NCBI GenBank assembly: GCA_965261665.1
Contig: OZ253467.1
Span: 321,926 to 385,925, forward strand
Reading direction: 5' to 3'
From: Dehalococcoidia bacterium
GTDB lineage: Bacteria; Chloroflexota; Dehalococcoidia; Lucifugimonadales; GCA-2712585
DNA length: 64,000 nt
Shown: one piece after another, positions 6,372 through 48,677 of the stretch
Position numbering within the stretch: the first letter of the stretch is position 1
How the letters are laid out: every line of letters begins with the position of its first letter
Position numbers and translations under genes: made by a program
Notes under the pieces: generated by a model
The model's database searches: none
What the model saw: the letters and a program-made list of their open reading frames with translations, nothing else
Told to the model about the DNA's origin: nothing

Positions 6372-7022
6372 ATGGGCCTCGTGGAACCCGGTTTACAGGA
6401 CTATTTTTTTGATCGGGTAGACGGGGGCGACGACGCTCTTTTCTATCGGGAGCCGCGGCTTGTCGTGCATATCGACGACGCTGCCATTGCTGAGATTGGG
6501 CGCATATTTCAGGAATTCCTGCCCGCCAACGGGGTCATCCTGGACCTGATGAGCAGCTGGCGGTCGCACCTACCCGCAGATTTCGTCAAAGCTCGGATGG
6601 TGGGTCTGGGGCTGAACGACGTGGAGATGCGGGAGAACCCTCAGCTGGACGATTTTGTGGTCCATGACGTAAATCAAGACCCTCGACTGCCGTTTGAGGA
6701 CGCTAGCTTCGACGGGGTGATTCTGACGGTGTCGGTGCAGTACCTGACGAGTCCGGTGGAGGTGTTGAGGGACGTGGGTCGGATACTCAGGCCGGGAGGG
6801 TCCCTCGTGATTACTTTCTCCAACAGGATGTTTCCCACCAAGGCGGTGCGGATATGGCAGGGGTGCAGCGACGAGCAACGGATGACGTTGGTGAAGCTGT
6901 ACCTGCAGAAAGCGGGAGGTTTTGAGGATATTCGGGCGGAGGACCGGAGTCCGCAGCCGAAGGGGTTCTCTGATCCGGTGTATTTGGTGGCGGGGAGGAA
7001 GGGATTCAAGCCGCCCTCCTAA
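6372..7022 (+). CDS. Class I SAM-dependent methyltransferase (Methyltransf_11-like)
   Basis: VILDLMSSW (motif I-like), FDGVILTVSVQYL, LRPGGSLVITFSN. Confidence 0.7.
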   Translation: MGLVEPGLQDYFFDRVDGGDDALFYREPRLVVHIDDAAIAEIGRIFQEFLPANGVILDLMSSWRSHLPADFVKARMVGLGLNDVEMRENPQLDDFVVHDVNQDPRLPFEDASFDGVILTVSVQYLTSPVEVLRDVGRILRPGGSLVITFSNRMFPTKAVRIWQGCSDEQRMTLVKLYLQKAGGFEDIRAEDRSPQPKGFSDPVYLVAGRKGFKPPS

Positions 7023-7116
7023 GCCGCGCCGATCCCCGAGTCAACAAGATTCTTCGCTGTCGCCTTGTGAAGGCCGGAAAAGGGATAAACGGCCTATTTT
7101 CATGGTAATTTGCAGA

Positions 7117-7151
7117 CTAAAAAGGGGGGCGGCTCCGTGGAGCCGCCCCCC
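7117..7151 (-). terminator. Rho-independent terminator (minus strand)
   Basis: GGGGGGCGGCTCC-gt-GGAGCCGCCCCCC hairpin (7124-7151), followed on the minus strand by TTTTT (7118-7123). It lies 33 nt after the TAG at 7184-7186. Confidence 0.65.
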
Positions 7152-7183
7152 TTCTTGGTTCAACGCAATCGGAGTGTTGAAAC

Positions 7184-10700: not shown

Positions 10701-11641
10701 ACGGGGTCAAGGGTTATGGTTACTGGTCCGCTGTCCTGAGTCCACGTGTGGTTCTGGGTTACATAGTTCCGGTCAGCGGAATCTGGGTCGTCGACGGATC
10801 CCTCAAGGATGACCGGATTGTTGGAGTTGATGACTCTGTTCGGGCCAGCATGGGCTATGGGAGGGCGGTTGCCGAAAGTGAGGCCCAGAGCTTCAGCCGC
10901 CTCCGATGCCCTGAACGCATATCCCGTTCTTCTGTCATTAGAGGCCGTAAAGAAGATGCAAGATAGCTGGTACTCGTCACCAACCTTCCTGTATAATCCT
11001 GCGCCGGAATCTCCACCTATGAGATCAACCGTGGAACTGAAGGAAACTAACCCTATGTATCTGAAGCCAGTAACCTCTTGCCTTGAGTTAAGGCCAGTAA
11101 CCGTGACTTTATGCTCACCGCTATTCCTCCCCAGGAAAACCAACTTGTCCCCTATCGAAGGGTCATAGGTTCCAGGGACAATTCGCCTGTCTGTATGTAC
11201 ATTTATCGTTTCTCCTGGCAGATGCTGGTCGTCGTGTCCGTGCAATGCAAATTTAACACCTACACCACTCTCCAGAACCGCGTAACCCACGTCCATTCGA
11301 TTATTTCCATCTCCCTCCAATCCCCCCTTTCGGTGAACCCAAGCTGGCCTGAGTATGTCCCACTGGGGCACAGTCGCTATGTGTCTCGATCCACTGATTT
11401 CATGATGATACACCCTATCACCACCAGCCGGCTGACTATTCCTAAGGCCGGTAATGACGTGTGCGTTAGTCACAAGGACAGCGTTCCCGTCTCTATCCTT
11501 GGCAATGATGGAAATTGTTCCACCGGGCGATGTCGCATCTGGATCGTCAACAGGGGAATAGGTACCATCCCCGTTCGGCCTTTCGGCTACTATCCTGAGT
11601 CCCGATGTGATCGTGTCGTGATGTTCGTTCGGTCTTGTCAT
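7739..11641 (-). CDS. Multidomain protein: N-terminal trypsin-like (S1) serine protease, PKD-like and fibronectin-III domains, and C-terminal ~75-aa repeats; truncated by the insertion
   Basis: 1300 aa. Protease motifs TNAHVI and GGDSGAGLY. PKD-type motifs (VTLDGSGSSDPDGDTLAYAW, three copies). FN3-type motifs (YEYRVRMTNADGVGPW, YYYRVRGKNDDGTGPW). Repeats of the form W.DTG.TR...EKEQ.RT..W.K.Q.RTS..G..TQW..ASR.E.RWV. Confidence 0.85.
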   Translation of the reverse strand: MTRPNEHHDTITSGLRIVAERPNGDGTYSPVDDPDATSPGGTISIIAKDRDGNAVLVTNAHVITGLRNSQPAGGDRVYHHEISGSRHIATVPQWDILRPAWVHRKGGLEGDGNNRMDVGYAVLESGVGVKFALHGHDDQHLPGETINVHTDRRIVPGTYDPSIGDKLVFLGRNSGEHKVTVTGLNSRQEVTGFRYIGLVSFSSTVDLIGGDSGAGLYRKVGDEYQLSCIFFTASNDRRTGYAFRASEAAEALGLTFGNRPPIAHAGPNRVINSNNPVILEGSVDDPDSADRNYVTQNHTWTQDSGPVTITLDPVADEPVHRTFTPEVVGVYFFTLTATDQEPLSASDTVRVSVWPSAQSVLPTRVRATAAARSVDITWTGPSIATGYQVEIGIPPSEGGQNHTFHTSMRESINIGSLIPQKTYEYRVRMTNADGVGPWTDWARTTTPGETPPTPTGDQWDVQYLNNKIQVKVTEIPEVIPAISQVRAKLGISPLGTGLGSDTITVTKNIGTALNRWVDVLTSAESNWQVGTWTAQVRFENTIGDPGYSPGKPVTVPNRAPTANPGYTQAVAAGSTVTLDGSRSSDPDGHSLTYRWEQLGLGELGIAPVTPVTISNSNQATATFVAPNQAGPLSFKLTVTDPGDLTHAANVTIHACSATGESRWYDTGETRVSGSTFEKRQTRMHNGVTEWQWVRVNRPPISDAGSDQVVAPSATVTLDGSGSRDRDGDTLAYAWTQTQGPSVTLTGADTVSPTFTAPSNPTHLRFRLTVTDTHEASDIDAVVVRVVTDPTDTAALTNLPPTANAGAAQTVTSGVTVTLDGSGSSDPDGDTLAYAWKQVAGPNVTLSSATVAAPTFPAPSSGATTLRFRLTVTDPDGAIDTDAVAITVNAPTPPPPPANVTATATANSVTVSWNTVSEATGYDMQLGEIEEGEEIGYANYPTTGLTYTVGNLKSNTRYYYRVRGKNDDGTGPWSDPVRSIVTPVKTWEDTGETRNRVEGAWKDTGNTRENQVLLIFEKEQTRTITWEKERRCANCAAGAPTKWVNASRTETWWVPVVWGPWEDTGDRRNEVTGDWTYTGRTQTDPVDDVFEKEQSRTTTWEKKQSRTSDVGNHTQTQWVQASRIEIRWVRETWDEWEDTGEIDNEVKDTWKDTGETREDDINLVYEKEQRRTIAWRKEQTRTSNFGNTQTQWIPASRTETRWVVIPEECGSWSDTGRVRNSSYGSYSRTGNTRGSGANKKCEESRTVYREKQQSCTTNAPYYNTRYRWVSTTSTTATRWVDCPPPCGPWSDTGNTRTSYGT

Positions 11642-11725
11642 AACTTCTCCTTATTTTTTTAAATTTGTGTTTTATGGTTGAGTAAACCTTGGGCATGCAA
11701 CCAGTGAACTACCGCGGCGCAACTA

Positions 11726-12415
11726 TCATTCGTCGTCCCGGCGAATAGGCACGAAATAGTCTCTGGCTTCGAAAGCGCTAAACTTTGCAGCGAGAACGGG
11801 ATACCCATTCAGGCAGCCCGGCAGCCAACGATGTAAATCTTCCCTCCTTCCACTCCAGGGATAATCGATGTAGGCAATGATTCCATGCTTTACGGACCAC
11901 CGTTCCATGTTGTCTGTGTCTTGATCACGAAGAGAAAGCCTATTGACCGCAACCCAAGCGAATGCGGGAATCGCCTTGAATCGCTCCTGATGCTCCAGGG
12001 CCACTCTGCCAGCATCTCTAACGGCTTCATACGAGCCTCTGTAGCTATACTCTCGCACATCCACCGACCAATCATCGTGGACGGAAACACTGAACGGTGG
12101 CGAAATCGACTCGACAATGGCCAGCGCGCCAAAATCAAAATCGTCAAAACATGGCTCCAGGCCCAATATGTCCTCATAGGGAGGGGTGCGCAGAAACAAC
12201 ACCGCTCCAATTGCAAGAGCGACGACGAAAAGACCGCCGCCAAAGATGGCTAGAAACATCGCCCTACGCTTCCCAGTGTTCCCTTGCCCTCCCGGCCCAT
12301 GAGCCGAGCTATCAGGATGAACAGCCTTTTCTGCGCATCCCACAGTCAGGCGCAAAGCAGCCGCTGCTACGATGAAGAGGGTGAGGGCTTTTGTTTGCCA
12401 GTTGTGGGTTTTCAT
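11726..12415 (-). CDS. Hypothetical lipoprotein / membrane protein upstream of the giant protease gene
   Basis: Signal peptide with a lipobox-like LTVGC, and a second hydrophobic helix (AMFLAIFGGGLFVVALAIGAVLFL). Confidence 0.5.
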   Translation of the reverse strand: MKTHNWQTKALTLFIVAAAALRLTVGCAEKAVHPDSSAHGPGGQGNTGKRRAMFLAIFGGGLFVVALAIGAVLFLRTPPYEDILGLEPCFDDFDFGALAIVESISPPFSVSVHDDWSVDVREYSYRGSYEAVRDAGRVALEHQERFKAIPAFAWVAVNRLSLRDQDTDNMERWSVKHGIIAYIDYPWSGRREDLHRWLPGCLNGYPVLAAKFSAFEARDYFVPIRRDDE

Positions 12416-24867: not shown

Positions 24868-25304
24868 GGTCAACCTCCCTCGAGACCACGACATTGTACC
24901 ATTCACTAGCCATGTGCAATCGGATTGAAGTTAATTCTCCTCAACGTTTACGGGCTATTGTGGTTCGCATATTGAGCAGTACGGTGACAGGCACCTCCAA
25001 CCTCCACGATTGACGTTGCCATTGGTCTGAAGCATTTATTCTTCATGGTATACATATACGGATCGCGTCATCGTTGCTCTCGATGAATACATTGCGTTAG
25101 TCAAGGACATTAAGTATTCTACCAGTTCCATTGCTATTCTAAGGTCCTGGCCGACGATCTACATAGAAAATCTCCAACTCTTCAGAGACTTCTCACTGGC
25201 AGCCATCACCGAAACCCATAACTACTCAATGGGCGGGACTTTCTTGAAGGACTCTTCGAATCCCCCTCCATGCAACTCCTCGAACTCCGCTAGTAGGCGC
25301 TCCA

Positions 25305-25541
25305 CTAGTCCCAGCCGCCCTTCCTCCTGCGCCGGAGCCAACGCCACAGGTAGACCGGTGAGTACAGCAGAAGGGTCACATAGCCAAATAGCAGGAATCC
25401 CACTATGAATATTATCACGACCAACGGAATAATCACCACGATCGCGAAAGGCCCCATCGCGTCGAGGAGGGGACTAATGATCGGTATCGGCGAACCTTCC
25501 GAGGGTTGTTGACCCAGCACGACCAGCAGGATAGGTTCCAT
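25305..25541 (-). CDS. Small membrane protein (hypothetical)
   Basis: Its ATG overlaps the upstream stop by 1 nt (TAATG at 25539-25543). Long hydrophobic stretch. Confidence 0.4.
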   Translation of the reverse strand: MEPILLVVLGQQPSEGSPIPIISPLLDAMGPFAIVVIIPLVVIIFIVGFLLFGYVTLLLYSPVYLWRWLRRRRKGGWD

Positions 25542-25798
25542 TATTCCTCTCCTTCATCAGCTTCCACGTCCAGCTTGAAAGCCCCGGATTTGGTAATCTC
25601 CTCCTCCAACCACCGCCTATTCCGCCTGTTGTACAGAAAGAGGAATGTGGGAATTGGAACGTAAGAGGCAAACATTACCAATCCTCTATTCGCACTTTTG
25701 AAGATGTCAATCACGGAACCAAACTCAATCGGGCATGTGAAGACTGTTCGCACTAAGAATAGAATGTCCAGAACTACGTAACAAACATGGCCGTGCAT
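25541..25798 (-). CDS. Small membrane protein (hypothetical; N-terminus uncertain)
   Basis: Hydrophobic ORF in the AT-rich islet. A 46-codon ORF in another frame overlaps its start, so a frameshift is possible. Confidence 0.35.
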   Translation of the reverse strand: MHGHVCYVVLDILFLVRTVFTCPIEFGSVIDIFKSANRGLVMFASYVPIPTFLFLYNRRNRRWLEEEITKSGAFKLDVEADEGEE

Positions 25799-26008
25799 AT
25801 CACCAAGGCCATGAACCCGGACAGATGATATCCGAACCTGCCGGTATGACGTGTCAACACGTCCTCCAGACCAGGCCAGAAATCGGTAAGGTTATCCATC
25901 CGCTCATACTGCATGCCCCTTTTCCGTGTCAAGTGCATAATGACGGTTCAAACTTCCTCAGCGTTGATCCGTCGACTATGGAGCCAGCCAATCATTCGGC
26001 GGCTTGGG

Positions 26009-38495: not shown

Positions 38496-39017
38496 ATGGA
38501 ATACCAGGAAGCGGTGAACTACTGCGCTACGCATACCAACGTGGAGACGGGGTTGGCCTGCGGGAGGTGCGAGCGGTTTATCTGCCCTCGTTGTATGATC
38601 CAGACACCGGTGGGGAGCAGGTGTGGCGATTGCGCGCGGGTCCGCAAATCTCCAGTGTTCGACGTGACCGCAAAGCAGTACCTGATGGCCTCCGTTGCAG
38701 CGGTGGGGCTGGGTACCGTTCTGGGAGTGGTGGGGGCCCTGCTGCGTATAGAAATTGGCTGGTTTCTTTTTCTGACCGGGATCCTTGCTGCGGGCATTGG
38801 TTACCTGGTGGGGGAGGCTGTGAGTGTTGCCGCAAATCGCAAGAGGGGACAGGGTCTGGCCTTGATAGCGGCTTCCGGGGTGGTGATAGCATTCGCAGCA
38901 GCTACGATAACGACCCTAGCCCAGCCCGAAGCGTACAGATACGACCTTTTCAACATTGTGACCGCCGTGCTATTGCTGGCGTTGGCCGTGTACATCTCCG
39001 TCGGCCGGGTCAGGTAG
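38496..39017 (+). CDS. Zinc-ribbon (B-box-like) membrane protein
   Basis: CGRCERFICPRCMIQTPVGSRCGDCAR followed by three or four TM helices. Confidence 0.6.
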   Translation: MEYQEAVNYCATHTNVETGLACGRCERFICPRCMIQTPVGSRCGDCARVRKSPVFDVTAKQYLMASVAAVGLGTVLGVVGALLRIEIGWFLFLTGILAAGIGYLVGEAVSVAANRKRGQGLALIAASGVVIAFAAATITTLAQPEAYRYDLFNIVTAVLLLALAVYISVGRVR

Positions 39018-39066: not shown

Positions 39067-39590
39067 ATGCTAAAACGTCCGAACGGAAGGGAATGCTCAA
39101 TCCATCGTGGGTGTAGAACTACGCTTGAGTGCGTTCGCTGCGGCGAGTTGGACTGCTCTCGGTGCATGGTTCAAACGCCGAAGGGGAGCCGATGCAGGTA
39201 TTGTGCGCGGAGGCTCAAGCCTCTCGCATTCGAAGCGAACATCAAGCAGTATCTGGCGGCGTACGCTGCGACGATGGGACTGGGCGGTGTTCTAGGGGCA
39301 GTTTTCGTCGTGACAAACTATACAGATTCGCCTGGATACCCTTCCTAGTCGTTATCCTGACGGCCGGTATAGGTTGCCTCGTGGGCAACGCGGTTAGCCT
39401 CGCCACCAATGGCAAGCGGGGGCGGGGGCTATCTATGGTGGCGACATCCGGAGTGGTCATGGCCTATGCCGCGGCCACGGCAGTCGCTCTCTTCCGTCCC
39501 GGAGCGGAGAGATACAACTACCTCGACGCGGGATTCGCCCTGTTATTCCTAACCCTGTCCCTCTACATCGCCGTCAGCCGGTTCAAATAG
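39067..39590 (+). pseudogene. Frameshifted paralog of 38496..39017
   Basis: ORF 39067..39348 carries the Zn ribbon (CVRCGELDCSRCMVQTPKGSRCRYCAR). The TM part (RFAWIPFLVVILTAGIGCLVGNAVS..) continues in the frame of ORF 39129..39590. The switch lies around 39310-39330. Confidence 0.6.
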
Positions 39591-40139: not shown

Positions 40140-41173
40140 TCGGCCGCCGCAGTCGCCGCGGGCTCAGGCTCAGGCACAGGATCAGGCTCCGTCTTCTCTC
40201 CCCGGATGAGCGCCTCAATCTCCTGGGCCATTGCGCTGTTTTCCTGCAGAAACTGCTTTGCGTTCTCCCGCCCCTGACCAAGACGCGTCTCGCCGTAGGA
40301 GTAGAAGGAGCCTCGCTTCTGGATGATGTCCTTGTCGGCCCCCAACTCCAGGAGATCTCCGGTCCAGCTGATGCCCTTGCCGTACATGATGTCGAATTCC
40401 GCGACCCTGAAGGGGGGCGCTACCTTGTTCTTGACCACACGGGCGCGAACGCGGCTGCCGACCATTTCGGTCCCTTTCTTGATGGCCTCCACCCGTCGAA
40501 GGTCTATGCGAACGGAGCTATAGAACTTCAGCGCCCTACCGCCGGGAGTGACTTCCGGACTGCCGAACATGACGCCGACCTTCTCGCGAAGCTGGTTGAT
40601 AAAGACGACGGCGGTGTTGGAGCGGTTGATGGCGGAGGTGAGCTTTCGCAGAGCCTGGGACATGAGCCGGGCCTGCAATCCCACATGGGTATCCCCCATG
40701 TCGCCCTCGATTTCGGAGCGCGGCACCAGGGCGGCTACGCTGTCCAGCACAACCACCTGCACAGCGCCGCTGCGCACCAGGTATTCGGTAATCTCAAGGG
40801 CCTGTTCCGCGTCGTCGGGCTGGGACACCAGAAGGGCATCCACGTCCACGCCGCAGTTTTTGGCGTAGATTGGGTCCATGGCGTGTTCAACGTCGATGTA
40901 GGCGGCAATACCGCCCTTCTTCTGACTCTCAGCCATGATGTGGACAGCCAGAGTAGACTTTCCCGCAGCCTCTGCGCCATATATCTCCGTGACCCGCCCC
41001 TTGGGGATGCCGCCAATTCCGAGGGCCAGGTCCAGGGCCAGGGACCCCGTGGAGATTACCTCCGTCGGATGAATCTTGTCGGACGCTCCTAGCCGCATGA
41101 CGGCTCCGCGGCCGTAGTGCCGCTCTATCTGGCTAAGGGCTATCTCCAGGGCATTGTCCTTCTTTTTTGCCAT
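40136..41173 (-). CDS. recA: Recombinase RecA
   Basis: Motifs [29 protein letters not shown] and [28 protein letters not shown]. Confidence 0.98.
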
Positions 41174-41349
41174 ATCGTGCCTCCAGTCGGCGGAATACTA
41201 CCATATTACAATAAGAACGTCAATTCTGTAACCGGAATAGAGGAAATGCACTGCACGGGATCTGGCATAGGCCAGGCCGGATGGCATGATTGTGGCTAGA
41301 GGAAGAAGGGGGTGGCAACCCTGAGAGCGAAAGTTTAGGATAGACTTCT

Positions 41350-41850
41350 TCACCAGATCATTCGCCGAGACTTCGAGACAGATTCATATCCTTCATCTAA
41401 TGGGAGGCTATCCTCATTGGCTGCTTGCACTGCCAACTGATCGCATCGCTCGTTCTCAGGATCTCCAGAGTGGCCCCGCACCCAACGAAACTCAATCTCA
41501 TGCTTTTCACAAAGGTCCAAGAGAATCTTCCAAAGATCCGGATTGATAGCCTTTTCTCGCTTGTTTCGCTTCCAACCGTTGTCCCTCCAACGCCTAGCCC
41601 AGCCCTTTTGGATGCTATCTACCAAGTACCGAGAATCGCTGTGGAGGGTTACGCAGCAACTTTGATTGAGCGCTTCGATGGCCTTAATAGGTCCCATGAG
41701 TTCCATACGGTTGTTGGTGGTACGGCGATATCCTCCACTAAGTTCCCGGCGATGCTCCCCTAATTTCAACACTACGCCATAGCCGCCAGGACCGGGATTA
41801 CCAAGACACGAGCCATCAGTGTATATGGTAACTTGTTTCTTTGTTGCCAT
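41350..41850 (-). CDS. rnhA: Ribonuclease HI
   Basis: Motifs IYTDGSCLGNPGPGGYG, TNNRMEL, LHSDSRYL and GHSGDPENERCDQLA. All DEDD and His catalytic residues are present. Its ATG overlaps the upstream stop (TGATG). Confidence 0.9.
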   Translation of the reverse strand: MATKKQVTIYTDGSCLGNPGPGGYGVVLKLGEHRRELSGGYRRTTNNRMELMGPIKAIEALNQSCCVTLHSDSRYLVDSIQKGWARRWRDNGWKRNKREKAINPDLWKILLDLCEKHEIEFRWVRGHSGDPENERCDQLAVQAANEDSLPLDEGYESVSKSRRMIW

Positions 41851-42644
41851 CAGGCAGATGCTTTGGCTATCGAATCTGGACTAAGTTCAAATCCTGCTTC
41901 TCCAAGCCTTTGACAGAGCCGTGGCGCTGCTTCTTTGACATGGTTATTGAAGGGCAGGTAAATTATTCCGCTGGCGTCCGACGGAACATCTAGGTGACCT
42001 TTCTTGAGGATTGCAACCCGGGGTCTTCCAAATGCTGCTATCAACATACCCATTTCCATAACCACATTCTGCCTGGCTCGGGGTTCAGCATTTCCAAGAG
42101 TGTCTCCCAGCTTGTATCCCATATCATCAGGCGTAAGCAAGACGATTCCAAATCGCTTTGCTTCTGAGGGAGACATTATCTCACGTTCTAGAGCTTCTAT
42201 AATCGTCAGGCCTCCCCCACTGGTATTTCCGAGAACAAAAGGATCTAAACCCAAACGGTGGAGAACGAGTTCAAGCTGTTCGCAAGCAACTTTATCATGC
42301 CCATAAACGACAAATACCCTTTTGGATTCCTCATTTGGAGCTGGACCTGCCGAAGCAGAGCTTGGAGATGCGTCAGCAGAGGGTATTTCTGTTGCGATTG
42401 AATGGGGGACATCGCTAGATAGAGAGATATCTGCCAACGTCTTTTCGATCGCGTCCTGCAACTTAGCGCGGGCTGCTTTAGGTCCTTGAATCAGTATAGT
42501 TCCTGTGGAGGGCCACCAGTTAAAGATTGCGCCGTCTTCGCTCCGAAATACCCTCTTACCATTGTCTTCGGACCATCTACCTTTATGGCCCAACTTGTCT
42601 ACGATAGCTTTGATCTCGCTAACCTCTCCGCGAAATTTTTTCAT
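41850..42644 (-). CDS. TIR-like (Cap12/PycTIR-type, COG4271-like) domain protein with an unassigned N-terminal domain
   Basis: C-terminal half: RVFVVYGHD..LGLDPFVL..GGLTIIEALE..FGIVLLTPDD..PRARQNVVMEMGMLIAAFGRPRVAILKKG..DVPSDASGIIY. N-terminal ~75 aa ends in GAIFNWWPSTGTILIQGPKAA. The Cap12/PycTIR assignment is recalled, not searched. Confidence 0.7.
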   Translation of the reverse strand: MKKFRGEVSEIKAIVDKLGHKGRWSEDNGKRVFRSEDGAIFNWWPSTGTILIQGPKAARAKLQDAIEKTLADISLSSDVPHSIATEIPSADASPSSASAGPAPNEESKRVFVVYGHDKVACEQLELVLHRLGLDPFVLGNTSGGGLTIIEALEREIMSPSEAKRFGIVLLTPDDMGYKLGDTLGNAEPRARQNVVMEMGMLIAAFGRPRVAILKKGHLDVPSDASGIIYLPFNNHVKEAAPRLCQRLGEAGFELSPDSIAKASA

Positions 42645-42786
42645 GTAGCTTCCCTTTGGAAATTCATTTCAACAATAGCACGTTGACAAATCATTCCTTC
42701 TGATAATATTGCGCTTCACTTCGACTAGAATACAAAGATTAATAGCTAAACTCAACAAACAAATTAGTCCAGGATGCTTGTCAAAA

Positions 42787-42832
42787 CTGATGCATAGGGA
42801 CCCACAGCACTGATGCATAGGGACCCACAGCG
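42787..42832. repeat. 2 x 23-bp tandem direct repeat upstream of the TIR-like gene
   Basis: CTGATGCATAGGGACCCACAGC(A/G) occurs at 42787-42809 and 42810-42832. Each unit contains the ATGCAT palindrome. Confidence 0.85.
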
Positions 42833-42926
42833 TCGGTGAAAATTCCTGTCCTTGGGTTCTATTGATAGCGCATACTGATGGAGAAATGAGCGCTAGTCCT
42901 CAAGTCCCACCTGTGGATTGTGCGGC

Positions 42927-44510
42927 TCAAGCTTTGGGGGTGTATTTGTGGCCTAGTTCTTCTTCCCAGCGGAGGTAGTGGATGGTGTCGGCGTAGGAGC
43001 GATGGGGGCCCATGACTACCACGTCGTTGGGCGGGGTCATAACGCCGGCGAGACCATTTTCCACCTCTAAGCCTTGGCTGCGCCAGGCGTTCATGCCTCC
43101 CTCCAGCACGGTTATGTCGGAGTAACCCATGCCGGCGAGGGTAGCGCCAGCAAGAATGGAGTCAATGCCGTTGGCGCAGGTGACGAGGATGGGATCGTCT
43201 TTGCAAGGGGCCACGTCGTCGATGGTCGACTCCAGCCAGCCCCGGGGAGTCCACCGAGCGCCGGGAACGTGTCCGTCGGCGAATTCCACGCTGGCACCGA
43301 CGAAGATTTTCTTAGTAGGGGACATGGCTGCCACTGCCTGGGTAGAGACCGTCCTAATCTTCGAAGTGGATTCCTGAAGGGCGAAGGGGAGGGGACTCGG
43401 CATACCTTCCTCCAACTCCCAATCCTGGGCGGCCCACCGGGTTACACCGCTGCGGAGGGCGTAGACGTTGGGAAAGCCCATCTGCCGGAACCAGGAAGCG
43501 ACGAGGGTAGAGCGCACCCTACCGTCGCAGGCGAATATAATGAGGCCGTTACGCACGGGGGCCACGTCGTCGGCCCGCTGGACCGCCTGACCGCCGGGGA
43601 ACCATCGGAAGCCTGGGATGTGTCCGCCGCGATATTCCTCTTCCCGACGGACGTCCACCAGGTAGACTGTTTCCTGCTGAGTCCTGGCCATGACTGACTT
43701 CAGTTCAGGGAAGTCCATGAACCGGACGCCGTCTTCTTCGGCTGCTCTTTCGGCGTAGTCCGCGGCGAGAGCCTCGCCCTCGGCAGAGACCGGCGGCAGG
43801 GATAGACTGTCCGCACCCGTCTCCAGCTCGAGGCCCGACAGGACCCAACCGGCGGTGCCGTTCTTGAGGCCTAAGACGCGGGGGACGCCCATGCGCTGGA
43901 GGGCGCGCGTACCGATGATGCTGCGGGTGCGACCGGCGCAGTTGAGGATGACGGTGGAGTCCGGCCCATGTTCGTTCAGGATGTCGGTAACGTGGAGGGC
44001 AAGCTCCCCGTTAGGCACGCTGCGTCCGCCGGGGATGGAGAAGTTGCGGAACTCCTCCGGTGTGCGGGTGTCCATAATCACCAGCTTTTCCCCGGAGTCG
44101 ATACGACGCTTCAACTCTATGGAGTCAATCTCCGGCACCCGGTGTTCCACCTCCACCCGCTCGCCGAAATCTTTGCTGAGGACGTTGGTGCCCCACTCGG
44201 TGGGGAAGTCCAACGAAGTCCAACGATTGATGCCGCCTTCCAGAACCGAAACGCGGCTGTAGCCCATGCGCTCGGCGGTTACGGCGGAGAGGGACGCCTG
44301 TCGTCCGGCGTCGTCGCACAGGACCAGGGGCGCACCTCGGAAGGGCACGAGGGCGGACAGGTCGTACTCGATGCGGCGCCGAGGAAGCAGACTAGCGCCG
44401 GGTATATGGGAGCTGTTGTAGCTGCCCGCATCCCTAACATCGAGCAGGGCGAATTCCTTCTGGGACGTAAGAAGGGCACGCAGTTCGTGGGAGGTGGTGT
44501 AGGACGTCAT
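42927..44510 (-). CDS. Four-domain rhodanese-like sulfurtransferase
   Basis: Four rhodanese repeats with loops VLCDDAGRQAS, LNCAGRTRS, FACDGRVRS and VTCANGIDS. The ATG at 44510 has AGGAG upstream. Confidence 0.85.
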   Translation of the reverse strand: MTSYTTSHELRALLTSQKEFALLDVRDAGSYNSSHIPGASLLPRRRIEYDLSALVPFRGAPLVLCDDAGRQASLSAVTAERMGYSRVSVLEGGINRWTSLDFPTEWGTNVLSKDFGERVEVEHRVPEIDSIELKRRIDSGEKLVIMDTRTPEEFRNFSIPGGRSVPNGELALHVTDILNEHGPDSTVILNCAGRTRSIIGTRALQRMGVPRVLGLKNGTAGWVLSGLELETGADSLSLPPVSAEGEALAADYAERAAEEDGVRFMDFPELKSVMARTQQETVYLVDVRREEEYRGGHIPGFRWFPGGQAVQRADDVAPVRNGLIIFACDGRVRSTLVASWFRQMGFPNVYALRSGVTRWAAQDWELEEGMPSPLPFALQESTSKIRTVSTQAVAAMSPTKKIFVGASVEFADGHVPGARWTPRGWLESTIDDVAPCKDDPILVTCANGIDSILAGATLAGMGYSDITVLEGGMNAWRSQGLEVENGLAGVMTPPNDVVVMGPHRSYADTIHYLRWEEELGHKYTPKA

Positions 44511-45227: not shown

Positions 45228-46061
45228 TCACCAATTCTTCAATATGTGGTTAGCGATGTCGACTGCAATAGGCGCCCCCTTCGGATTGCCTGCCGCAAAG
45301 AACAGCTCAAATAGTGGGACGTTCGTAGAGTTTCTAAGCGTTCGTGAGGTTGGGGCAACTCTATCGAATACGGTGATCAAACGCTCCTTGTATCTACGAG
45401 CAATCTGCTCGCTACTCCAGACTCGCTCACGTCTAGGCTCAACGCTTAAGAAGGACAATTGAGGAGAATCCTGGTAACCTTCCAACCAGTAATTTCCCCC
45501 AAATATACGATCCAACGACGCTGCTTTCCCTTTTGCTGGTTCTCTAGATCTGGGCATATTTCGGAAGACTCCCATGAGGGGGAACAGGATCCAGCAGTCG
45601 ATCTTCTTGGTTTTCGCAATGACCTCAACAGTTTGCCACGAGACTTCAGTTGCAAACGGATCCAGGAATACAACCGCGCGGTCAAATGGCTGCATGGCCC
45701 TACAGAATTTTGGAATCTCATCGTTTGCATCGCCATGAAGAACTTTGATATTTCGTCCTCGGTACGAGTTCGACAAAGTCATCAATTCGTCGGCTGCTCC
45801 TGCGTCCTCTTCTATGAAGACCAGCTTATCGAAGGGCTTCTCATCAATGCCCAAAGCGATCATAGGGGATCCGCGGTGGAACTCGTGAAACTCGGCATAC
45901 TCGTCCACAAATTCAGCATATGACCCAGGCCCAGCGAAGGCATCGACGTAAATCAACGTAAACCGTTGGTTTTTCAGCGCCGTTGTATAGGCATCAAGAT
46001 ATGCGCGGAGAATTGCCAGTTTCTGTTCGGTCCATGGGCCGCCGAAACGGGGAGTGGACAT
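45228..46061 (-). CDS. Three-Cys-motif partner protein TcmP (TIGR04474-like)
   Basis: FGGPWTEQKLAILRAYLDAYTTAL..LIYVDAFAGPGSY. Directly downstream of a Gp37/Gp68-family gene with a 1-nt gap. Confidence 0.65.
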   Translation of the reverse strand: MSTPRFGGPWTEQKLAILRAYLDAYTTALKNQRFTLIYVDAFAGPGSYAEFVDEYAEFHEFHRGSPMIALGIDEKPFDKLVFIEEDAGAADELMTLSNSYRGRNIKVLHGDANDEIPKFCRAMQPFDRAVVFLDPFATEVSWQTVEVIAKTKKIDCWILFPLMGVFRNMPRSREPAKGKAASLDRIFGGNYWLEGYQDSPQLSFLSVEPRRERVWSSEQIARRYKERLITVFDRVAPTSRTLRNSTNVPLFELFFAAGNPKGAPIAVDIANHILKNW

Positions 46062-46062
46062 T

Positions 46063-46821
46063 TCAGCTCATTACACCCGCGGGCATTTGGGCCCAGGTTT
46101 GGCCGTCTATGACGGCTTGGTTGCCTGACCGCTTTCCTCGTTTGCCGCCTAGCTGCTTCAGGAAGAACGCTACGTCAGCCTGTAAGGACTGGTCACGCAA
46201 GGCCCTCGCCCAGTCTAAGTTCATGGGGCGGGCGGAGCGGCCGCTTTCTCCGCCGGCGATGACCCATTGGAGGTCTCCTCTGTCCAGCCACGGGCTGAGG
46301 TCCACGGCTTCAAGGAGGGGTTCGGCGGAGACGAAACGGACCGGCGCGGGTAGGCGAGCGAGCACCGTGATTCGCGGGGCGTACTTCTGGCTTTCCACCG
46401 ACGTGCCTATCCACACTCCCTCCGGCCATACGTCACCGTAACGAGCCTGATTTCGGTTCCACCAAGCGACAGCTCTTCCCGGACGCTTGGTGAGGACCTG
46501 GAATACGTGTCCTCGCTTGACCGAAGCGGCTTCCATAACGTCGAAGATTTTGGTGACAAACTCAAAGGGTACGTGGGGATGGAAGACGTCCGACATGCTG
46601 TTGACGAAGACCCGACGAGGCTTACCCCAACGTAGAGGGGCATCCAACCGCTCAGGGAGAAGCCGAACTTCGTCCGGGGCGCTTTCGTAGCCGGGAACGC
46701 CCATTGCCCGCAGACGGGGGTAGAGCGCGTACATGTAACAGTTGTCGCAGCCGGGGGATACGCGCGTGCAGCCTGTGACGGGGTTCCAGGTTTCGTCCGT
46801 CCACTCGATGGTTGATGCCAT
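46063..46821 (-). CDS. Phage Gp37/Gp68 family (DUF5131) protein with three-Cys motif
   Basis: IEWTDETWNPVTGCTRVSPGCDNCYMY at the N-terminus and WVIAGGESG near the C-terminus. Confidence 0.8.
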   Translation of the reverse strand: MASTIEWTDETWNPVTGCTRVSPGCDNCYMYALYPRLRAMGVPGYESAPDEVRLLPERLDAPLRWGKPRRVFVNSMSDVFHPHVPFEFVTKIFDVMEAASVKRGHVFQVLTKRPGRAVAWWNRNQARYGDVWPEGVWIGTSVESQKYAPRITVLARLPAPVRFVSAEPLLEAVDLSPWLDRGDLQWVIAGGESGRSARPMNLDWARALRDQSLQADVAFFLKQLGGKRGKRSGNQAVIDGQTWAQMPAGVMS

Positions 46822-46991: not shown

Positions 46992-48677
46992 TTAGAATTG
47001 GCGGTAGGCGTTTACTATGGGGAGGCGGCGGTCTTTGCCGAAGGCCTTTGCGGTTATCTTTACGCCCGGCGGGGACTGACGTCGCTTGTACTCGTTCCGG
47101 TCCACGGCGGCCATCACCTGCCGCACCGTGGCGGGATCGTAGCCCAGGGACGCTATCTCCAGGTAGCTTTTGTCCTCCTCCACGTAGGCCTGCAGGACGC
47201 CGTCCAGGATGTCGTAGGGGGGCAGCGAATCTTCGTCCTTCTGGTCGGGTCTCAGCTCCGCGCTGGGCGGTTTGTCGATAATTTCCTGGGGAATCACGTT
47301 CTTGGGCGTTCCGTTCTTGTTGCGCCACCTACACAGTTGGTATACCAGCGTCTTGGGCACGTCCTTCAGGACAGCGAAGCCTCCCGCCATATCGCCGTAG
47401 AGGGTGGCGTAGCCCATGGCCATTTCGCTCTTGTTGCCCGTGATGAGCACCAGCCAGCCGAACTTGTTGGAAAGGGCCATGAGCGTGTTGCCCCGCAGTC
47501 TCGCTTGAAGGTTCTCCTCGGCGACGCCCGACTCGGTACCCTGGAACGACCCTGACAGCATATTCAGCATTGCCTGATGCCCCTCCTCGATGGGGATGGT
47601 CAGCATCTCCAATCCCAGGTTATCTGCAAGGGCCGCCGCGTCCAAGAGGCTGCCCTCGCTGGAGAAGCGGGAGGGCATGGCCACCACCTTGACGTTTTCC
47701 GGACCGAGGGCGTCGGCCCCTACACAAGCGGTGAGGGCGGAGTCGATGCCGCCGGAGAGTCCTACCAGGGCCTTGGAGAAGCCGTTTTTCCTGAGGTAGT
47801 CGCGGGTGCCGAGCACCAGGGCGCCGTAGATTTCGGCGGGGCCTTCCAGCAAGGGCACAGCGTCCGGTCGCTCTAGCTGGGAGCGTTCGTTGACGTTGAC
47901 GTCGGACACGGGGATCGCGCTGGGCGAGGGAGATCGATCGTCGGCGAGATGCAGGTCGATCACAAGCAGGTCTTCCTCGAACTCCCTGGCACGGGCGACG
48001 AGTCCGCCTGAAGGGTCGAAGACCACGCTTGCGCCATCAAAGACCAGTTCATCCTGTCCACCCACGGCGTTTACATAGGCGACGTATACGGCGTTGTCGC
48101 GGGCGCTGCTTCGCACGATTGACTCCCGTATTCTCTGTTTGTCCAGGTGGTAGGGAGAGGCGCTTACGTTGACGATAACCTCCGCGCCGGCGCGACGCTG
48201 GCACGACGCGGGGCCGTCGGCGAACCAGATGTCTTCGCAGATGTTCACCCCCACGTTGACGCCGCCGATGGCGTAGACGGGGAAGACACGGCCGGACTGG
48301 AAGTAGCGGTCTTCGTCAAAGACGCCGTAAGTGGGCAGGTGATGCTTCCGATACACGTCCACCAGCCGCCCATCGTGTGCAATGGCAGCGGCGTTGTAGA
48401 TCCGTCCATCTTCAACGTGGGCGTACCCCACCACCGCCGTCAAGCCCTGGGATCCGGCAACCGCCTGGTGCATGGCTTTCACGTTGTCGCGAAGGAAAGC
48501 GGAGCGGAAGAGCAGGTCTTCGGCGGGGTAGCCAGTGATGGCCATTTCTGGGAAGGCGACAACGTCGGCGCCGGCATCGCGAGCGCGGGCCATAAACTGG
48601 AGGATCCGTTCAACATTGCCCGTGAGATCTCCAACCACGGAATTCATCTGAGCCAGGGCGACTCTAAGGGTGCGCAT
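46992..48677 (-). CDS. nadE: Glutamine-dependent NAD+ synthetase
   Basis: N-terminal nitrilase domain (LRVALAQMN, FPEMAITGY, CEDIW) plus a synthetase domain (GLSGGIDSA). Confidence 0.92.
   Translation of the reverse strand: MRTLRVALAQMNSVVGDLTGNVERILQFMARARDAGADVVAFPEMAITGYPAEDLLFRSAFLRDNVKAMHQAVAGSQGLTAVVGYAHVEDGRIYNAAAIAHDGRLVDVYRKHHLPTYGVFDEDRYFQSGRVFPVYAIGGVNVGVNICEDIWFADGPASCQRRAGAEVIVNVSASPYHLDKQRIRESIVRSSARDNAVYVAYVNAVGGQDELVFDGASVVFDPSGGLVARAREFEEDLLVIDLHLADDRSPSPSAIPVSDVNVNERSQLERPDAVPLLEGPAEIYGALVLGTRDYLRKNGFSKALVGLSGGIDSALTACVGADALGPENVKVVAMPSRFSSEGSLLDAAALADNLGLEMLTIPIEEGHQAMLNMLSGSFQGTESGVAEENLQARLRGNTLMALSNKFGWLVLITGNKSEMAMGYATLYGDMAGGFAVLKDVPKTLVYQLCRWRNKNGTPKNVIPQEIIDKPPSAELRPDQKDEDSLPPYDILDGVLQAYVEEDKSYLEIASLGYDPATVRQVMAAVDRNEYKRRQSPPGVKITAKAFGKDRRLPIVNAYRQF

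Follow-up and report, generated by a model that had tools for sequence, protein, structure and literature searches.

A TIR-domain gene overlapping an RNase HI gene in Dehalococcoidia: a possible two-gene anti-phage cassette

Introduction

In SPARTA, a TIR NADase is activated by the recognition of an RNA:DNA duplex via a partner with an RNase H-like fold. Cap12 (TIR-STING) of CBASS and PycTIR of Pycsar are built as a sensor followed by a TIR effector domain of the Pfam subfamily PF10137, the sensor being a STING or a cyclic nucleoside monophosphate (cNMP)-binding domain and the operon partner a signal-producing cyclase. The closest functional precedent for a role of ribonuclease HI (RNase HI) itself is given by RnlA-RnlB and LsoA-LsoB, in which the activation and control of an abortive-infection-type toxin depend on RNase HI. 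The anti-phage toxin RnlA needs RNase HI for its activation, and RNase HI has been reported to bind one of the N-terminal domains of RnlA, which resemble the TATA-binding protein (TBP) (PMC5308261, PMC8266594); the pull-down data were later questioned for missing controls in the work which also supports the TBP-like fold assignment (PMC8266594). Here we analyze two overlapping genes, encoding a 264-aa protein with a TIR-like domain and an RNase HI, which lie beside recA in a stretch of 64,000 nucleotides from a Dehalococcoidia bacterium (contig OZ253467.1, positions 321,926 to 385,925), referred to throughout as the window.

The TIR protein belongs to a family already catalogued among the phage defence candidates (PDCs), which are predictions nominated by their embedding in BREX, DISARM or type I restriction-modification systems (Payne et al., bioRxiv 10.1101/2024.01.29.577857). 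Its family, PDC-S35, is not named in the main text or the text-form supplementary files of that work, nor in the other searchable papers. What appears to be new is the recurrent operon with RNase HI, the modular N-terminal domain and the mosaic structure of the gene, none of which was found in openly accessible papers. An initial annotation of the window, made from the letters alone, knew of no described defence pair of a TIR-like and an RNase H gene. No description of such a pair was found in the openly accessible literature, and RNase H is absent from a recent systematic survey of the TIR systems of bacteria. The interpretation which we favor, and to which we give about even weight, is that the pair is a two-gene candidate anti-phage cassette in which RNase HI is a non-obligate accessory cofactor linking the TIR protein to RNA:DNA hybrids.

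Results

The gene pair is composed of the following features, given by their positions in the window.

41850..42644, minus strand: open reading frame (ORF) of the 264-aa TIR-like protein, from the ORF list with translation
42420..42644, minus strand: N-terminal domain, residues 1-75, predicted sensor or regulatory module
42324..42419, minus strand: linker, residues 76-107, low-complexity Ser/Ala/Pro
41853..42323, minus strand: Cap12/PycTIR-type TIR domain, residues 108-264, predicted NADase effector
41848..41852, minus strand: TGATG junction, formed by the TGA stop codon of the TIR gene and the ATG start codon of RNase HI
41350..41850, minus strand: RNase HI ORF, 166 aa, from the ORF list with translation

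The C-terminal half of the 264-aa protein is a Cap12/PycTIR-type TIR domain with a conserved glutamate, as the initial annotation had proposed from a series of short motifs. Both ORFs and all of these motifs are present in the ORF translations, namely FVVYGHD (residues 111-117), TIIEALE (147-153), VLLTPDD (168-174), RARQNVVMEMG (189-199) and PSDASGIIY (221-229), together with GAIFNWWPSTGTILIQGPKAA (38-58). Three lines of evidence agree on the assignment. The Pfam family PF10137 (CAP12/Pycsar TIR) matches residues 109-233 with 101.5 bits against a cut-off of 24.7, covering profile positions 1-118 of 119; a profile of the protein family matches chains of Cap12 and PycTIR and places E197 on the glutamate of their NVVFEFG motif, including that of the Cap12 chains 9lmq and 7un8; and the top Foldseek matches of the structural model are the TIR-STING structures 9lmq and 9lmr (E=6e-6, probability 1.0). 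E197 is invariant across 31 homologues. We take the glutamate of the NVV(F/M)E(F/M)G motif to be the catalytic residue in Cap12-type NADases; Glu197, encoded by 42054-42056, is the candidate catalytic residue of the window protein, and its TIR domain is predicted to be an NADase effector. The model of the TIR domain is of moderate confidence, with a predicted local distance difference test score (pLDDT) of about 46-78, and that of the linker reaches 26-48, the linker being disordered and variable in sequence and length across the family. Both domains are strongly conserved, with a mean column identity of 61%. The family name at NCBI is just "nucleotide-binding protein". A PADLOC search, which had been put forward in the initial annotation as a check, identified the protein as PDC-S35, filed as a single-gene system, on the basis of a full-length match to model PDLC05003 (E=6.5e-96, residues 1-263 against profile positions 1-244 of 245).

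The second gene encodes a complete and, judging from its residues, catalytically intact RNase HI, in agreement with the first description of the locus. It matches PF00075 (RNase_H, E=3e-45), passes the NCBIfam equivalog NF001236 with 200 bits against a cut-off of 160, and is 51% identical to E. coli RNase HI. The catalytic residues D12, E50, D72, H127 and D137 are present and are kept in the aligned RNase HIs of other pairs; the protein also has the basic protrusion, and there is no extra domain. No second RNase H gene was found in the 64-kb window, and the linked RNase HI may double as the ordinary housekeeping enzyme. The stop codon of the TIR gene and the start codon of RNase HI share base 41850 (context ctgccTGATGgca), and this one-base TGATG overlap implies translational coupling. 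By reading of the sequence there is no obvious ribosome-binding site upstream of the RNase HI ATG, so that the enzyme is probably translated by re-initiation at TGATG.

The conservation of the pairing was assessed in a scan centred on the TIR protein, with one genome per species (80 loci), and in a scan centred on RNase HI in 80 metagenome loci, 58 of which had enough upstream sequence to be judged. RNase HI is adjacent in 23 of the 80 TIR-centred loci, and in every one of the 20 loci in which the TIR protein is at least ~57% identical to that of the window. These 20 loci make up a Chloroflexota-centred clade and come from Dehalococcoidia, SAR202 and Caldilineaceae, plus one locus labelled Vicinamibacterales and one labelled Acidimicrobiia. 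The overlap itself, which had been pointed out in the window from the start, is conserved as well: a TGATG/TAATG junction is found in 16 of 18 reconstructed main-clade pairs (L016 among them; L009 and L066 were left out of the reconstruction), the exceptions being L057, with a two-base gap, and L007, in which the RNase HI start is unresolved. The 120 closest relatives of the RNase HI (69-93% identity) belong largely to the paired clade, 28 of them being cross-matched to TIR matches and two more being confirmed as paired. The two genes are co-inherited, since the identity matrices of the TIR proteins and the RNase HIs correlate with a Mantel r of 0.81-0.83 and none of 5000 permutations gave a value as high. 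The divergence of RNase HI follows that of the N-terminal domain more closely than that of the TIR domain (partial r 0.60-0.64 vs 0.03-0.32). This pattern is no more than suggestive, as it can also result from recombination in the TIR domain.

Pairs also occur outside the main clade, in L029 (Verrucomicrobiota), L075 (Akkermansia), L051 (Hymenobacter) and L115, the last being the single locus with a TIR-like gene among the 58 judged RNase HI-centred metagenome loci. In all four cases the nearest TIR relatives are unpaired and the RNase HI falls outside the main RNase HI clade of the tree. The layouts differ as well, with a 6-nt gap in L029, a 205-nt gap in L075, RNase HI upstream in L051, and an overlap in L115. 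The adjacency has arisen at least five times independently, which for one housekeeping gene among thousands is far beyond chance. The search for co-occurrence in other genomes which the initial annotation had advised has thus found the pairing to be conserved elsewhere (the 23 loci given above) and recurrent in origin.

The N-terminal domain is modelled by AlphaFold with a pLDDT of 90, in the element order beta(2-3)-alpha(8-17)-beta x4(22-53)-alpha(56-75). This predicted order is compatible with that of a TBP-like half-domain, the order of elements alone having been compared. The residues G22, W24, R34, W43, Q53 and G54 are invariant, and W24, R34, W43 and Q53 would suit a sheet that binds a ligand or nucleic acid. 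The resemblance to the N-terminal (TBP-like) domain of RNase HIII which had been suggested for this region failed in every sequence and structure test. Pfam matched none of 22 N-terminal domains even at E<=10, and no STING match was among them; hhalign against the RNase HIII N-terminal domains of Geobacillus, Bacillus and Thermovibrio (sequences recovered from PDB 2d0a and 4py5) gave a probability of 0.6%; neither RNase HIII nor RnlA appeared among the 50 best chains from Foldseek against PDB, where no match had E<0.001, and Foldseek against BFVD returned uncharacterised phage proteins only. Homology with the RNase HIII domain was rejected on these grounds. A weak sequence match to the PDB entry 2jpu (E=0.07), of the PaREP1 family, was rejected as spurious; PaREP1 proteins are all-helical, in conflict with the beta-sheet predicted here.

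Among 1.84 billion representative proteins, a profile search identified 912 carriers of the N-terminal domain, most of them TIR fusions or fragments thereof. The domain also precedes a multi-pass membrane region of ~340 aa in P0138, is fused to other C-termini in P0151, P0135 and P0178 (one of these C-termini being Cys-rich and unrelated), and stands by itself as a tandem pair in P0125 and P0130. Its presence on membrane-type and other C-termini, or in tandem, is as would be expected of a portable sensor or regulatory module.

In the lineage of the window the gene order rhodanese-TIR-RNase HI-recA is common to the window, L006, L163 and L230. The recA context is restricted to close relatives and accounts for one of the 80 genome loci. 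Comparison of the window with L163 showed that the gene is a mosaic: the TIR domain (108-264) is 99.4% identical at the amino acid level, with a synonymous divergence (dS) of 0.045 and a non-synonymous divergence (dN) of 0.003, while the N-terminal domain (1-75) is only 63% identical (dS 0.88, dN 0.26), RNase HI 88.5% (dS 0.58, dN 0.065), recA 96% (dS 0.195, dN 0.018) and the rhodanese gene 89% (dS 0.42, dN 0.061). About 450 nt are about 100% identical between 41853-42323 of the window and 10322-10792 of L163. A near-identical TIR half amid a diverged N-terminal domain and diverged flanks indicates recent recombination confined to one domain of the gene. The linker has a dN/dS of ~1.8 in the same comparison. 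Simple diversifying selection on the N-terminal domain was considered and rejected, as its dN/dS is ~0.3 and its contrast with the TIR domain is a matter of recombination.

The setting of the family is of the defence type, in line with the initial suggestion that the pair is a defence cassette. In a scan of the neighbours, the paired loci were found in defence-island contexts: the neighbours of 18 of them match PDC-S01, Septu PtuA, MADS, PARIS AriA, a prokaryotic Argonaute (pAgo) with SIR2, a CBASS cyclase, and type II, IIG and III restriction-modification genes. One paired locus adjoins IetS (with an AAA ATPase gene before it) and an Eco57I-like gene, and the pair of L029 has a serine recombinase gene on one side and a large gene with a Sacsin/NOV_C domain on the other. 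Relatives with no RNase HI lie among the hsdM, hsdR and hsdS genes of type I restriction-modification systems in L045, L050, L061, L070, L072, L076 and L077; the PDC-S35 copy of the window itself is not embedded in such a system. A candidate system of another kind, PDC-M41, is located 2.6 kb from the pair (45228-46821, minus strand), in a second low-GC patch with a GC content of about 0.48-0.52. It consists of PDC-M41A, a TcmP-family protein (TIGR04474, 194.6 bits; PADLOC E=1.7e-79), and PDC-M41B, a DUF5131 protein (PADLOC E=6.6e-82). The slot is filled differently in the syntenic relative L163, by genes for a type II methyltransferase, a DUF5131 protein and a protein like PDC-M30A, which marks it as a variable defence slot.

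Homologues of the TIR protein are present on 66 IMG/VR viral contigs and in three E. coli phages, and the protein matches a PHROG family of unknown function. That the pair as such is carried by phages was rejected, as none of these viral contigs and phages has an adjacent RNase HI. On a Paludisphaera plasmid the gene adjoins an IS5 transposase and a VapC toxin gene. A full-length homologue with 46% identity, annotated as a TIR-like protein, is found in Escherichia phage vB_EcoM-689R2 (ON470582.1; locus L081, 3917-4678 of the locus), within the replication module between DNA polymerase and nuclease/helicase genes and with no RNase H gene nearby.

When set against the described systems, the 264-aa protein matches PDC-S35 end to end, and its relatives lie in type I restriction-modification systems, one of the settings from which the PDCs were nominated. 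The difference is that PDC-S35 is catalogued as a single gene, whereas here and throughout the Chloroflexota-centred clade it forms an operon with RNase HI, a partner missing from the catalogue entry. The window protein shares with Cap12 and PycTIR the PF10137 subfamily, the conserved glutamate motif and the sensor-plus-TIR layout of the effector; however, the Cap12 equivalogs NF050171 and NF050172 score only 24-25 bits against a cut-off of 450, the PADLOC match to PycTIR is local (31.7 bits, in the TIR region), a 75-aa N-terminal domain stands in the place of the STING or cNMP-binding sensor, and the operon partner is RNase HI and not a cyclase. No cyclase was detected near the pair among the Pfam-scanned flanks (rhodanese, CDO-like, DUF5131, NadE) or in recA, known by its translation. 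Membership in CBASS was rejected for the low Cap12 equivalog score, the lack of a STING domain and the lack of an adjacent CD-NTase, and membership in Pycsar because the PycTIR match is not full-length and no cyclase is nearby.

The likeness to SPARTA is limited in a similar way, as the pair has no Argonaute, no MID/PIWI and no APAZ domain, its TIR subfamily differs, and its partner is a small RNase HI with intact catalytic residues in contrast to the inactive PIWI domain of SPARTA. Neither protein is matched by a pAgo or APAZ model, and SPARTA or short pAgo membership was rejected. RnlA, for its part, has a HEPN RNase and not a TIR domain as its effector and relies on RNase HI from the host chromosome and not from its own operon; its N-terminal domains are proven to be TBP-like, whereas the N-terminal domain of the window protein is compatible with such a fold in its predicted element order only. 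A type II toxin-antitoxin module was also rejected, because the TIR gene is solo in most lineages, RNase HI is disrupted in L009, and RNase HI persists alone elsewhere.

The surroundings of the two genes contain three further features.

42645..42926, minus strand: AT-rich leader separating the TIR-like gene from the rhodanese gene, GC 0.42-0.44
42786..42831, minus strand: perfect tandem repeat of 2 x 23 bp, GCTGTGGGTCCCTATGCATCAGT, 5' of a nearby TTGACA hexamer
41174..41349, minus strand: spacer separating RNase HI from recA, at the downstream edge of the AT-rich islet

The GC content is 0.42-0.52 over 41100-42900, whereas recA and the rhodanese gene have about 0.60-0.65. The 1-kb bin with the lowest GC of the whole window is 42001-43000 (0.473); downstream of the spacer the GC climbs back inside recA. 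The pair is therefore AT-richer than its flanks, as first described, and the GC of the pair is below that of the flanks in most related loci also. Further 1-kb bins of low GC, 11001-12000 and 25001-26000 (~0.50 against a window mean of ~0.59), may be foreign or otherwise unusual. The AT-rich upstream region with its repeat likewise corresponds to the early description. The repeat, with 0 matches expected by chance, was absent from all of the 229 related loci, including the syntenic L006 and L163; it was rejected as a conserved operator, being unique to the window, and its absence from all related loci indicates a lineage-specific duplication. The leader presumably contains the cassette's own promoter and ribosome-binding site (aagggaagctacATG). 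A consensus scan detected no minus-strand sigma-70 promoter in the leader, and its best sigma-70-like match there lies on the plus strand at 42683-42710 (TTGACA-16 nt-AATATT, 10/12 positions), facing away from the TIR gene. Promoter-like sites for recA were found by the same type of scan on the minus strand at 41318-41289 and 41223-41195. Conservation of the leader with L163 is confined to ~70 nt beside the start codon. An Rfam search of the leader region matched no family, and a structured RNA was rejected on this basis.

Two other neighborhoods in the window should be mentioned. Tandem paralogues of 173 and 153 aa on the plus strand (38496-39017 and 39129-39590) have an N-terminal zinc-ribbon-like CxxC...CxxC motif followed by predicted membrane helices; they have no Pfam or NCBIfam match and both are kept in syntenic relatives. 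The glutamine-dependent NAD+ synthetase NadE (CN_hydrolase plus NAD_synthase; 46992-48677, minus strand) is encoded ~4.3 kb from the predicted NADase, a proximity which is probably coincidental since nadE is syntenic in L163 and L006.

Discussion

If the pair is a defence cassette with RNase HI as an accessory cofactor, its N-terminal domain would receive a signal upon which the TIR domains, by analogy with Cap12 and PycTIR, would assemble. The assembled TIR domains would then hydrolyse NAD+, and the infected cell would stop growing, as in abortive infection. RNase HI could make or present the activating cue from intermediates of the invader's replication or transcription, or it could keep the sensor silent by removing the hybrids of the cell itself; the relatives in other phyla without a linked RNase HI might rely on the host rnhA in trans. 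The analysis shows what the domains are, that the translational coupling is conserved, that the pairing recurs and is co-inherited, and that the genomic surroundings are of the defence type; the NADase activity, the action against phages and any part played by RNA:DNA hybrids are what we infer, and for hybrids as the trigger this is inference purely. A stronger proposal, which we consider unlikely, is that of an Argonaute-free immune sensor gated by RNA:DNA hybrids, in which RNase HI, encoded in cis here and supplied in trans by the host for solitary relatives, would act on the hybrids of the invader and the N-terminal domain would read the event, either as hybrid-engaged RNase HI or as cleavage products, and switch on the TIR NADase; the N-terminal domain would then be a new portable sensor and RNase HI a recurrently recruited immune cofactor.

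Several observations weigh against a cassette in which RNase HI acts as immune cofactor. PDC-S35 is a candidate predicted solely from its embedding in other defence systems (bioRxiv 10.1101/2024.01.29.577857). There is no linked RNase HI in 57 of the 80 genome loci, nor in any of the 66 viral loci. The N-terminal domain has no detectable similarity to known hybrid-binding or nucleotide-binding domains, and the stable synteny of the locus in four genomes indicates a resident operon in the lineage of the window. It should be noted, furthermore, that each gene is found to persist without the other. In L066 the TIR gene is degraded to a fragment beside an intact RNase HI, and in L009 the TIR ORF is intact and RNase HI is split by an insertion of ~110 nt (about 7020-7170) whose ends are inverted repeats, AAGCCAAAGTG ... 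CACCTTGGCTT, and which looks like a miniature inverted-repeat transposable element (MITE). A monophyletic RNase HI subclade nested in the paired clade, comprising 17 clusters of 160-aa proteins, is apparently solo: none of the 17 clusters was cross-matched to TIR matches when the lists were compared, and the two members checked directly (P0294 and P0361) have no TIR gene and share a conserved, housekeeping-like context beside an MMPL-family gene, with a GC equal to that of the genome. The solo RNase HI genes of L232 and L234 (3990-4003 in both) still have TGATG at the start codon, which looks like a relic of the overlapping stop codon of a lost upstream gene, and the subclade is most simply explained by loss of the TIR gene and retention of RNase HI. 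Because either gene can persist without the other, RNase HI is not an antidote on which the TIR gene depends, nor is it devoted to immunity alone. The antidote role suggested for it in the initial annotation is thus unlikely in its obligate form, in view of the solo TIR loci, L009 and the solo RNase HI subclade.

The main rival explanation, which we regard as rather unlikely, is that RNase HI is simply the housekeeping rnhA and that an independent single-gene defence or selfish TIR element has lodged upstream of it with no biochemical link, the overlap of its stop codon with the rnhA start making the TIR gene costly to delete or providing it with expression. This is consistent with the rnhA equivalog score and intact catalytic residues, the lack of a second RNase H gene within the 64-kb window, the solo RNase HI subclade which persists in a syntenic context after TIR loss, the single-gene filing in PADLOC with most TIR relatives being solitary, and the vertical stability of the locus in the window's lineage. 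A chance lodging, however, accounts poorly for at least five origins of the adjacency, which involve different RNase HI lineages and gene orders and are far above chance. It also accounts poorly for the pair of L029, whose place beside the serine recombinase and Sacsin/NOV_C-domain genes is not a housekeeping setting, for the low GC common to both genes, and for the divergence of RNase HI, which tracks that of the N-terminal domain.

Both genes might also serve normal nucleic-acid metabolism and not immunity, the TIR protein being a nucleotide-binding or NAD-linked regulator working with RNase HI, for example in the control of R-loops or of replication restart, in the neighbourhood of recA. 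The high conservation of both domains, the site beside recA and recX which is stable in four related genomes, and the bare "nucleotide-binding protein" name of the family would all fit, but we hold this to be improbable. The recA context does not extend beyond the close relatives, and the family is patchy across phyla, carried by prophages, phages and a plasmid and embedded in restriction-modification operons; moreover, paired loci have defence-island neighbours, the N-terminal domain has been swapped onto membrane-type C-termini, and the gene is a recombination mosaic. The least probable of the alternatives, to which we attach very little weight, is a toxin-antitoxin arrangement in which RNase HI would be the obligate antidote, binding the TIR NADase one-to-one, and infection would free the toxin by titration of RNase HI onto hybrids or by its degradation. 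The conserved one-base overlap in a two-gene operon does suggest stoichiometric co-production, and RNase HI is part of the control of the RnlA toxin (PMC5308261). Against it stand the intact TIR gene of L009 beside a disrupted RNase HI, the many genome loci and all viral loci with an unaccompanied TIR gene, the retention of all catalytic residues with no extra domain in RNase HI, and the solo subclade in which RNase HI has outlived the TIR gene.

Whichever interpretation applies to RNase HI, the defence catalogues which list PDC-S35 as a single gene overlook a conserved partner in one large clade. If RNase HI does belong to the system, repeated recruitment would have made a universal housekeeping enzyme the partner of a TIR immune effector. 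The cassette would then offer a simple two-protein model in which RNA:DNA hybrids, formed by many phages, plasmids and retroelements, could serve as a danger signal; a widespread protein now annotated only as "nucleotide-binding protein" would gain a function, and a new 75-aa sensor domain common to several effector types would be defined. The pairing may hint at a new means by which invading DNA is sensed, and RNase HI as an immune cofactor would be a possible new principle, put here as a hypothesis which is clear and cheap to test.

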